Source: Escherichia coli
Lineage (GTDB): Bacteria; Pseudomonadota; Gammaproteobacteria; Enterobacterales; Enterobacteriaceae
Strand: one strand, 5' to 3'
Length of the DNA stretch: 64,000 bases
Assembly: GCF_024502345.1 (NCBI RefSeq)
Contig: NZ_JALDNN010000001.1
Within the stretch, counting starts at the first letter, position 1. Every line of letters starts with the position of its first letter. Shown here in pieces: positions 56,967 to 60,698 of the stretch. Both the position numbers and the translations under genes were made by a program. The notes below the pieces were generated by a model. That model was not told the origin of the DNA. It made no database searches and saw nothing but the letters and a program-made list of their open reading frames with translations.

Positions 56967-57359
56967 ATGAAAAAATTCGCAGCAGTAATCGCAGTAATGG
57001 CCCTGTGCAGCGCACCGGTGATGGCAGCAGAGCAGGGCGGTTTTTCTGGCCCATCGGCAACGCAAAGTCAGGCCGGAGGATTCCAGGGGCCGAACGGCAG
57101 CGTAACGACTGTAGAAAGCGCAAAATCCCTGCGTGACGACACCTGGGTAACCCTGCGCGGCAATATCGTTGAACGCATCTCTGACGATCTCTACGTGTTC
57201 AAAGATGCCAGCGGTACTATCAATGTTGATATCGATCACAAACGCTGGAACGGCGTGACGGTGACGCCGAAAGATACGGTTGAGATTCAGGGTGAAGTCG
57301 ATAAAGACTGGAATTCTGTTGAAATTGACGTCAAACAGATCCGCAAAGTAAATCCGTAA
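56967..57359 (+). CDS. ygiW: OB-fold periplasmic protein YgiW (VisP)
   Basis: ATG at 56967; signal peptide MKKFAAVIAVMALCSAPVMA; 130 aa. Confidence 0.92.
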   Translation: MKKFAAVIAVMALCSAPVMAAEQGGFSGPSATQSQAGGFQGPNGSVTTVESAKSLRDDTWVTLRGNIVERISDDLYVFKDASGTINVDIDHKRWNGVTVTPKDTVEIQGEVDKDWNSVEIDVKQIRKVNP

Positions 57360-57411
57360 TTGTTACCGCTCCCGGGACGCGTTCCCGGGAATAATTTCGC
57401 AGGGAGGCAAA

Positions 57412-57894
57412 ATGACAAACCTGACACTGGATGTAAACATTATCGATTTCCCATCAATCCCTGTGGCGATGTTGCCGCACCGCTGTAGCCCTGAGTTGCT
57501 CAACTACAGTGTGGCGAAATTTATCATGTGGCGTAAAGAGACGGGGCTTTCTCCTGTTAACCAAAGCCAGACTTTTGGCGTCGCCTGGGACGACCCTGCC
57601 ACCACCGCACCGGAAGCGTTTCGCTTTGATATCTGCGGCAGCGTTAGCGAACCGATTCCCGATAATCGTTATGGTGTGAGCAATGGTGAACTTACCGGTG
57701 GACGTTATGCCGTGGCCCGCCACGTTGGCGAGCTGGACGATATTTCACACACGATATGGGGCATTATTCGCCACTGGCTGCCTGCAAGCGGCGAGAAAAT
57801 GCGTAAAGCACCGATTCTGTTTCACTACACCAATCTTGCCGAAGGGGTGACAGAGCAGCGACTGGAAACGGATGTTTATGTGCCGTTGGCGTGA
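57412..57894 (+). CDS. ygiV: GyrI-like transcriptional repressor YgiV
   Basis: 160 aa. Confidence 0.92.
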   Translation: MTNLTLDVNIIDFPSIPVAMLPHRCSPELLNYSVAKFIMWRKETGLSPVNQSQTFGVAWDDPATTAPEAFRFDICGSVSEPIPDNRYGVSNGELTGGRYAVARHVGELDDISHTIWGIIRHWLPASGEKMRKAPILFHYTNLAEGVTEQRLETDVYVPLA

Positions 57895-58439
57895 TGGGGA
57901 ATCTTTACCGGAGTGTGAGCCAAATCACTCGCGATAAGTTTGAGCGAACAATGCCACAGGCGTATTGTTGTTGGGCTTATAATTTCTCCGGTAAGGAATA
58001 CCATGTATACGCGAAATTTATTATCCGGTGCGCCGTAAGCCGTCTCGGGGGTATCCATGAGCAAGCCGCACTTATGGCAGGAGGCGCGGGGCACTGGTGG
58101 AGACACAGCTAAACTGGGCTGAACCGTATACTTACAGTCGACTACTTTGATGCTTTAGGCTTCCCTGGACTCGCATAACCTCAACTTCTCGAATCGCCCG
58201 GAGCGGACCCCCATGCCGAGTGGTGTGGCATGGGCGCAACCTTGTGCTGCCCTCTATGCCGATCAAGTCTACAGCAAAGAGTTGTATATCAAGGCACATT
58301 GATGCCTTTATCGCCGTCGGAGCACGTCCGGCGGCGCTATTCACGCTGATCTCCTGTGACTCGACGCGGCAGATAATGTAGTATCTCCGGCAATATTGCC
58401 CCTTTGAAGGCTGGCGAATAAGTTGAGGAATCAGAATTA

Positions 58440-60698
58440 ATGAGCGATATGGCAGAGCGCCTTGCGCTACATGAATTTACGGAAAACGCCTACTTAAACT
58501 ACTCCATGTACGTGATCATGGACCGTGCGTTGCCGTTTATTGGCGATGGTCTTAAACCTGTTCAGCGCCGCATTGTGTATGCGATGTCTGAACTGGGCCT
58601 GAATGCCAGCGCCAAATTTAAAAAATCGGCCCGTACCGTCGGTGACGTACTGGGTAAATACCATCCGCACGGCGATAGCGCCTGTTATGAAGCGATGGTC
58701 CTGATGGCGCAGCCGTTCTCTTACCGTTATCCGCTGGTTGATGGTCAGGGGAACTGGGGCGCGCCGGACGATCCGAAATCGTTCGCGGCAATGCGTTACA
58801 CCGAATCCCGGTTGTCGAAATATTCCGAGCTGCTATTGAGCGAGCTGGGGCAGGGGACGGCTGACTGGGTGCCAAACTTCGACGGCACTTTGCAGGAGCC
58901 GAAAATGCTACCCGCCCGTCTGCCAAACATTTTGCTTAACGGCACCACCGGTATTGCCGTCGGCATGGCGACCGATATTCCACCGCATAACCTGCGTGAA
59001 GTGGCTCAGGCGGCAATCGCATTAATCGACCAGCCGAAAACCACGCTCGATCAGCTGCTGGATATCGTGCAGGGGCCGGATTATCCGACTGAAGCGGAAA
59101 TTATCACTTCGCGCGCCGAGATCCGTAAAATCTACGAGAACGGACGTGGTTCAGTGCGTATGCGCGCGGTGTGGAAGAAAGAAGATGGCGCGGTGGTTAT
59201 CAGCGCATTGCCGCATCAGGTTTCAGGTGCGCGCGTACTGGAGCAAATTGCTGCGCAAATGCGCAACAAAAAGCTGCCGATGGTTGACGATCTGCGCGAT
59301 GAATCTGACCACGAGAACCCGACCCGTCTGGTGATTGTGCCGCGTTCCAACCGCGTGGATATGGATCAGGTGATGAACCACCTCTTCGCTACCACCGATC
59401 TGGAAAAGAGCTATCGCATTAACCTCAATATGATCGGTCTGGATGGTCGTCCGGCGGTGAAAAACCTGCTGGAAATCCTCTCCGAATGGCTGGTGTTCCG
59501 TCGCGATACCGTGCGCCGCCGACTGAACTATCGTCTGGAGAAAGTCCTCAAGCGCCTGCATATCCTGGAAGGTTTGCTGGTGGCGTTTCTCAACATCGAC
59601 GAAGTGATTGAGATCATTCGTAACGAAGATGAACCGAAACCGGCGCTGATGTCGCGGTTTGGCCTTACGGAAACCCAGGCGGAAGCGATCCTCGAACTGA
59701 AACTGCGTCATCTTGCCAAACTGGAAGATATGAAGATTCGCGGTGAGCAGAGTGAGCTGGAAAAAGAGCGCGACCAGTTGCAGGGCATTTTGGCTTCCGA
59801 GCGTAAAATGAATAACCTGCTGAAGAAAGAACTGCAGGCAGACGCGCAAGCCTACGGTGACGATCGTCGTTCGCCGTTGCAGGAACGCGAAGAAGCGAAA
59901 GCGATGAGCGAGCACGACATGCTGCCGTCTGAACCTGTCACCATTGTGCTGTCGCAGATGGGCTGGGTACGCAGCGCTAAAGGCCATGATATCGACGCGC
60001 CGGGCCTGAATTATAAAGCGGGTGATAGCTTCAAAGCGGCGGTGAAAGGTAAGAGCAACCAACCGGTAGTGTTTGTTGATTCCACCGGTCGTAGCTATGC
60101 CATCGACCCGATTACGCTGCCGTCGGCGCGTGGTCAGGGCGAACCACTCACCGGCAAATTAACGTTGCCGCCTGGGGCGACCGTTGACCATATGCTGATG
60201 GAAAGCGACGATCAGAAACTGCTGATGGCTTCCGATGCGGGTTACGGTTTCGTCTGCACCTTTAACGATCTGGTGGCGCGTAACCGTGCAGGTAAGGCTT
60301 TGATCACCTTACCGGAAAATGCCCATGTTATGCCGCCGGTGGTGATTGAAGATGCTTCCGATATGCTGCTGGCAATCACTCAGGCAGGCCGTATGTTGAT
60401 GTTCCCGGTAAGTGATCTGCCGCAGCTGTCGAAGGGCAAAGGCAACAAGATTATCAACATTCCATCGGCAGAAGCCGCGCGTGGAGAAGATGGTCTGGCG
60501 CAATTGTACGTTCTGCCGCCGCAAAGCACGCTGACCATTCATGTTGGGAAACGCAAAATTAAACTGCGCCCGGAAGAGTTACAGAAAGTCACTGGCGAAC
60601 GTGGACGCCGCGGTACGTTGATGCGCGGTTTGCAGCGTATCGATCGTGTTGAGATCGACTCTCCTCGCCGTGCCAGCAGCGGTGATAGCGAAGAGTAA
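58440..60698 (+). CDS. parC: DNA topoisomerase IV subunit A ParC
   Basis: 752 aa. Confidence 0.98.

Follow-up and report, generated by a model that had tools for sequence, protein, structure and literature searches.

The 545 bp between the ygiV stop codon and the parC start codon of this Escherichia coli genome (57895-58439 of the 64,000-nt stretch of DNA analysed here, referred to as the window) are, with a probability that we put at roughly 85%, a non-coding relic of two independent histories, in one of which mqsRA was never acquired and in the other of which ygiS was deleted and the gap was filled by a 3′ fragment of a group II intron. An earlier note, made from the letters of the window, had remarked that mqsR, mqsA and an intact ygiS are missing from this spacer and had stated the K-12 gene order; both statements hold, the annotated K-12 record giving the order ygiV-mqsR-mqsA-ygiS-parC. 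The short spacer is not shared by K-12, in which parC starts 2,775 bp after the ygiV stop. The features of the region are collected in Table 1.

Table 1 Features of the ygiV-parC region, in window coordinates.
Feature	Coordinates	Strand	Basis or remark
ygiV	57412..57894	+	160-aa ORF; 98.97% identity to K-12 ygiV over 485 nt; annotated ygiV in identical genomes
ORF, 73 aa	57891..58112	+	
Ancestral ygiV-ygiS intergenic region, 108 bp, intact, including the ygiS upstream region	57895..58002	+	108 bp also in B2 clone D i14; aligns with E. albertii, E. whittamii and L011
Empty mqsRA site, 5 nt (GGGAA)	57897..57901	.	No K-12 counterpart; replaced by the 927-bp cassette in K-12-type genomes
ygiS 5′ remnant, ATG + 19 nt (22 nt)	58003..58024	+	Identical to K-12, B2 and outgroups up to ...TTATTAT, then diverges
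Group II intron 3′-terminal fragment, 239 nt	58025..58263	+	blastn to 3′ ends of annotated introns; no K-12 match
Reverse transcriptase/maturase C-terminus pseudogene, about 50 codons	58026..58178	+	Premature TAA at 58110-58112; natural stop at 58176-58178
ORF, 70 aa	58132..58344	-	
Domain V-like hairpin	58189..58228	+	RNAalifold consensus of six copies
Domain VI-like hairpin	58230..58255	+	Consensus hairpin with compensatory changes
Orphan CAA, neither intron consensus nor ygiS	58264..58266	.	GAT CAA GTC in the window, GAT TAT GTC in all ygiS-bearing relatives
ygiS 3′ remnant, last 11 codons (VYSKELYIKAH) + stop (36 nt)	58267..58302	+	Identical to K-12, B2 and outgroups
ygiS-parC intergenic region, 137 bp	58303..58439	+	Inside a 98.9% blastn block with K-12; K-12 length also 137 bp
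parC	58440..60698	+	752-aa ORF; annotated parC in identical genomes

A sensitive blastn comparison with the K-12 locus divided the region into matching blocks and a stretch foreign to K-12. The first block (57412-57896) covers ygiV plus 2 nt; window position 57896 corresponds to position 3406 of the K-12 locus and 57902 to position 4334, and K-12 positions 3407-4333 found no match in the window, from which the MqsR/MqsA locus, mqsR and mqsA with their palindromic operator, is absent. The second block (57902-58024) is 100% identical to K-12 from 32 nt past the mqsA stop through nucleotides 1-22 of ygiS. No K-12 match was obtained for 58025-58260, and the alignment resumes at 58261, from where it runs through the ygiS end and the intergenic region behind it into parC. 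Overall, the two loci are 99-100% identical in the flanking genes, upstream of ygiS and between ygiS and parC, whereas K-12 carries a 927-bp cassette (mqsRA promoter, mqsR, mqsA and terminator) and a complete 1,608-bp ygiS, neither of which is present in the window. The same search recovered both ends of ygiS as remnants in the spacer, and no mqsR or mqsA sequence. The spacer is a structural difference between genomes, for which a chance test is not applicable, and PGAP annotates no feature in it in three carriers (E2865, W and RM14516). Both ORFs named in the earlier note do exist, but the label low-complexity is wrong for either; the ORF on the plus strand is a chimera of the intergenic region, out-of-frame ygiS and an intron protein tail that runs to a premature stop. 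Just 3′ of the ygiS stop lies a GC-rich hairpin (GCCGTCGGA...TCCGGCGGC, 58306-58335), common to K-12 and not followed by a T-run, which could be a REP-like or terminator-like element upstream of parC.

For the left junction, outgroup loci were collected with YgiV as the query and one genome per species, which returned five Escherichia loci. In E. albertii, E. whittamii and L011, a divergent 'E. coli', ygiV is followed by a full-length ygiS and then by parC, mqsRA being absent, and the outgroup ygiV-ygiS junctions align with that of the window, GGGAAT motif included. Given these outgroup states, the absence of mqsRA is ancestral and the loss of ygiS derived. Of the 5,426 complete E. coli genomes used for all population counts, 2,298 carry mqsRA, and no copy falls below 99% identity to K-12; because the flanks differ by 1-3% between phylogroups, this uniformity in all carriers suggests that mqsRA spread recently. 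An alternative explanation is that mqsRA was once present and was then precisely deleted, which would make the left junction a scar as well. Such an event would be compatible with a junction that differs by only 5 nt and with a K-12 cassette that has no target-site duplication to mark an insertion. However, the outgroups, three of them with an intact ygiS, share uninterrupted sequence across the junction, the near-identity of mqsRA among its carriers points to recent spread, and blastn against K-12 found no mqsRA remnant in the window, and we consider a precise deletion very improbable. In the preferred reading of a site that was empty from the start, the ancestral Escherichia arrangement would have been ygiV, a 108-bp intergenic region, ygiS and parC, and in K-12-type E. 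coli the 927-bp cassette, bringing its own promoter and terminator, would have taken the place of 5 nt immediately behind the ygiV stop.

The ancestral ygiV-ygiS intergenic region is bracketed by a 17-nt inverted repeat (57897-57913 and 57986-58002; 82% complementary), and the K-12-type cassette is inserted in the left arm of this repeat. Within the carriers, one genome (HUM3355) has an IS1 inside mqsR and another (30EVA1) only a partial mqsA. Patchy chromosomal toxin-antitoxin loci among E. coli phylogroups were already known (PMC7167474; Fiedoruk 2015 and Ramisetty & Santhosh 2016, as cited there), and the presence or absence of mqsRA among E. coli is likewise known. Similar to other patchy type II loci, mqsRA behaves as an accessory cassette between core genes that is missing from many phylogroups, strain W included; to this picture the window adds nothing new, as it shows the empty state only.

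The ygiS part of the spacer is, judged from what remains of the gene, a deletion scar, and its loss is derived. The intact 535-codon ygiS, which encodes an ABC-transporter substrate-binding protein, is not present in the window; about 1,550 bp of it are replaced by the 239-nt filler (58025-58263). The ygiS start now opens an 11-codon ORF (MYTRNLLSGAP*, 58003-58038), and when the bases are compared with those of five relatives that carry ygiS, the gene resumes with certainty at 58267 (GTC TAC AGC ... TGA, ending at 58302). It could be argued that the entire short spacer is an ancestral empty site and that ygiS and mqsRA are both insertions of the K-12 lineage. This would be half true, namely for mqsRA, and it would agree with the frequency of the short spacer, the full 545 bp being conserved in 1,353 of the 5,426 genomes. 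The remnants and the outgroup states nevertheless rule it out, and we give it practically no credence: the 22 nt of the ygiS start and the 36 nt of its end still stand in their proper order and direction, an intact ygiS occurs in E. albertii, E. whittamii, L011 and about 4,000 E. coli genomes, and the middle of the spacer is intron-derived and not ancestral intergenic DNA. Of the two possibilities that the earlier note had offered for the spacer as a whole, the ancestrally empty site fits mqsRA (by the outgroup junctions) and the deletion scar fits ygiS (by the remnants); neither took account of the foreign middle, a 3′ fragment of a group II intron.

Loss of ygiS is recurrent. Two cryptic-clade genomes (MOD1-EC7003 and E1V33) have their own, different internal ygiS deletions without intron filler (L010 6553-6922; L012 3713-4140), independent of the window lineage, and ygiS of E. 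coli wlxctx60 is truncated C-terminally (L002 6102-7595). The practical effect of the scar would be the loss of YgiS, which is reported to promote deoxycholate import in K-12 (Kwan et al. 2015, as summarised in PMC6918082), and its recurrence would fit a selection against YgiS in the gut.

In the population, the mqsRA-free junction was found in 3,122 of the 5,426 genomes and the filler in 1,356; subtracting the 1,353 genomes with the full spacer from the 3,122 leaves about 1,769 with the order ygiV-ygiS-parC, such as B2 clone D i14. E. coli W, a phylogroup B1 strain (PMC7167474), has the same 545-bp spacer. The scar of RM14516 has the same boundaries as that of the window, and its filler differs at 11 of 239 positions (4.6%), compared to 1.5% and 1.1% in the flanking spacer parts (130 nt and 176 nt, respectively), 1.2% in parC and 3.2% at parC third positions. 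Given this divergence with identical boundaries, the ygiS scar is old. The filler would, on this one diverged comparison, drift at roughly the silent-site rate.

The filler is identified by homology as derived from the 3′ end of a group II intron. With blastn against a plasmid collection, it matched the end of a Cupriavidus ltrA (E = 9e-25) as well as the 3′ ends of annotated introns in Stutzerimonas and Sinorhizobium (2e-13), overlapping the ltrA stop. Copies with 83-85% identity occur at about 196 places on E. coli plasmids (blastn), one of them immediately 3′ of a group II intron reverse transcriptase/maturase gene that is annotated as a pseudogene and another preceded by Rfam group-II D1-D4 matches. 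The homology of seven copies in seven insertion contexts ends after ...GCCGAT (CCUAUGCCGAU), which corresponds to window position 58263. Residues 412-454 of the Cupriavidus intron protein align in frame with 58044-58172 by tblastn (49% identity, E = 1e-10), and the Sinorhizobium intron protein also matches (E = 2e-6). The codons that remain belong downstream of the GIIM domain, and the window holds no intact reverse transcriptase/maturase protein; Pfam reports no domain in the 50-residue remnant. Likewise, the Rfam group-II D1-D4 models find nothing in 57300-58600 at E <= 10, and they match the mini intron L007 described below and the complete relatives in Cupriavidus (L008) and Sinorhizobium (pSymA; L009).

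These two introns, whose proteins have no endonuclease domain, are among the closest complete counterparts. The nucleotide identity to the window is 79-87% over the last 70-145 nt, the proteins are 40-49% identical over the last 43 residues, and the 3′ end is the same (...CCUAUGCCGAU). The difference is that L008 and L009 are complete, with D1-D4 matches in Rfam, an upstream protein with RVT_1 and GIIM and fully paired 3′ hairpins, whereas the window copy has none of the roughly 1.7 kb on the 5′ side. Group II intron fragments are known to persist in the genomes of bacteria, one example being FRE652 of Sinorhizobium (PMC5894124). Similar to the window fragment, this RmInt1-like remnant is a long-lived, partial chromosomal intron of many strains that has no intact reverse transcriptase and decays slowly (PMC5894124, PMC4181065). 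However, FRE652 retains the 5′ ribozyme domains I-III and sits in accessory DNA, whereas the window fragment consists of the 3′ end only (protein tail and domain V/VI-like hairpins) and lies inside the deletion scar of a host gene. A search of the available literature library found no paper that names ygiS together with a group II intron, and an intron fragment within a ygiS scar appears to be unreported; it would be a minor relic and a new instance of event kinds that are known.

The part of the filler 3′ of the protein stop folds into two consensus hairpins, located where domains V and VI are expected. Domain V of group II introns usually carries an AGC triad, and the hallmark of domain VI is a bulged A 7-8 nt from the 3′ end of an intron that ends in AY, the 5′ end of the intron being GUGYG. 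In the window, an unpaired A stands at 58256, 8 nt from the intron end; the 3′ end ...GAT occupies 58261-58263, with a terminal AU. A hand-drawn domain V-like hairpin of about 32 nt has a CGC triplet at the place of the AGC triad. Compensatory changes are seen between L008 (GCAGCC/GGCUGC) and L009 (GCGGUC/GACCGC), and all 24 pairs of the two hairpins are intact in both of these introns, compared to 3 of 24 broken in the window copy. The two hairpins are called domain V-like and domain VI-like on the strength of alignment and position. The derivation from a group II intron rests on sequence homology because the Rfam domain V/VI model (Intron_gpII) misses the intact relatives as well as the window, which makes its silence uninformative. 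A GTGCG at 58028 was considered as an intron 5′ end and rejected, given the in-frame protein-tail homology and the lack of D1-D4 after it.

Relatives of the fragment on E. coli plasmids include 5′-truncated 3′ ends of the same intron family (L004, L005, L006), for example beside sopA and a ccdB remnant or beside IS1 and bcsC. An ORF-less 'mini' group II intron was found on NZ_LR890336.1 (L007 3593-4064), a plasmid of E. coli that also encodes tail-fibre and holin proteins; this intron begins with GTGCG, has Rfam D1D4-3 and D1D4-1 matches and keeps only about 10 codons from the beginning of the reverse transcriptase gene, followed directly by a 3′ end of the DV/DVI-like type seen in the window. 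When the longer plasmid fragment L004 was used as the query, no full-length intron of the family was found in the 5,426 E. coli genomes, and a tblastn search of plasmids with the Cupriavidus intron protein returned, among the best matches, only distant complete introns (Ralstonia, Burkholderia and Sinorhizobium).

In the window lineage, about 1,550 bp of ygiS were deleted, and the gap is now occupied by the terminal 239 nt of a group II intron plus 3 orphan nt. Two routes of arrival can be envisaged. The intron may have inserted in ygiS, with a later deletion removing most of both, or a pre-existing intron fragment or an abortive cDNA may have been captured during break repair. An intron that simply inserted into ygiS at this site would not account for the orphan CAA. 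Where related fragments sit on E. coli plasmids, the next bases are CAAG or CAAT, and because CAA represents the first bases after these plasmid fragments and not the TAT of ygiS, it speaks for capture or for a more complex succession of deletions. The strict version of the second route, in which no intron ever resided in ygiS and the filler was taken from plasmid DNA, or from abortive cDNA of an unspliced donor transcript, in the repair of the break that deleted ygiS, would also agree with the roughly 196 5′-truncated family copies on E. coli plasmids and with the absence of a full-length copy from E. coli. However, the shared CAA flank could reflect a target preference of the intron, no high-identity donor is known (best match 85%), and an insertion in situ followed by two deletions would give the same result, and we hold this version tentatively, at somewhat under even odds. 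The main reading, a ygiS deletion filled by an intron 3′ end, is common to both routes.

The intron fragment is probably inert. The earlier note had suggested that the spacer could hold an unannotated small RNA, and this idea finds no support. An Rfam scan of 57300-58600 at E <= 10 gave two chance-level matches (18 bits against a gathering threshold of 58, and 10.6 against 40; E = 2.4 and 7.2), a consensus scan found no sigma-70 promoter and one weak terminator-like site, and 58003-58340 (338 nt) folds no better than its shuffles (z = +0.19). A functional small RNA or cis-regulatory element could nevertheless be imagined, for example as a transcript from the ygiS upstream region that comprises the 11-codon ORF and the intron hairpins and possibly reads through to parC. 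The ygiS upstream region, Shine-Dalgarno sequence and ATG are 100% conserved compared to K-12, RegulonDB lists a putative ygiS promoter (Table 1 in PMC5120126), the spacer flanks diverge less (1.1-1.5%) than the filler, and the scar is fixed in a quarter of the genomes. Set against these points are the lack of any Rfam match better than E = 2.4, of a sigma-70 promoter and of folding beyond that of the shuffles, a filler that diverges at about the silent-site rate (one comparison) and has broken hairpin pairs, and the empty PGAP annotation in the carriers, which makes a functional element improbable. Given an intact ygiS upstream region, ribosome-binding site and ATG, and the putative promoter in RegulonDB, a short transcript with the 11-codon ORF, or read-through toward parC, is possible as a prediction from sequence. 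A more far-reaching version would link the retroelement to the loss itself: an intron cDNA or fragment that still had 3 nt of its prior 3′ exon would have patched the break in ygiS, and the ygiS upstream region and start codon would now drive a short chimeric transcript, with the 11-codon ORF and the intron hairpins, immediately 5′ of parC. We regard this combination as a long shot; if true, the expression of topoisomerase IV or the tolerance to bile salts could be changed by this transcript in one quarter of E. coli.

As a non-coding relic, the spacer is ordinary genome variation and changes no general principle. In practice, a ygiS pseudogene and a group II intron fragment can be annotated in these 545 bp, for which pipelines report no feature, and the three states of the locus offer a convenient lineage marker. 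For the biology of E. coli, about 58% of the complete genomes are without mqsRA and about 25% are also without ygiS, strain W among them, and results on MqsR, YgiS and deoxycholate obtained in K-12 can therefore not be generalised to the species.
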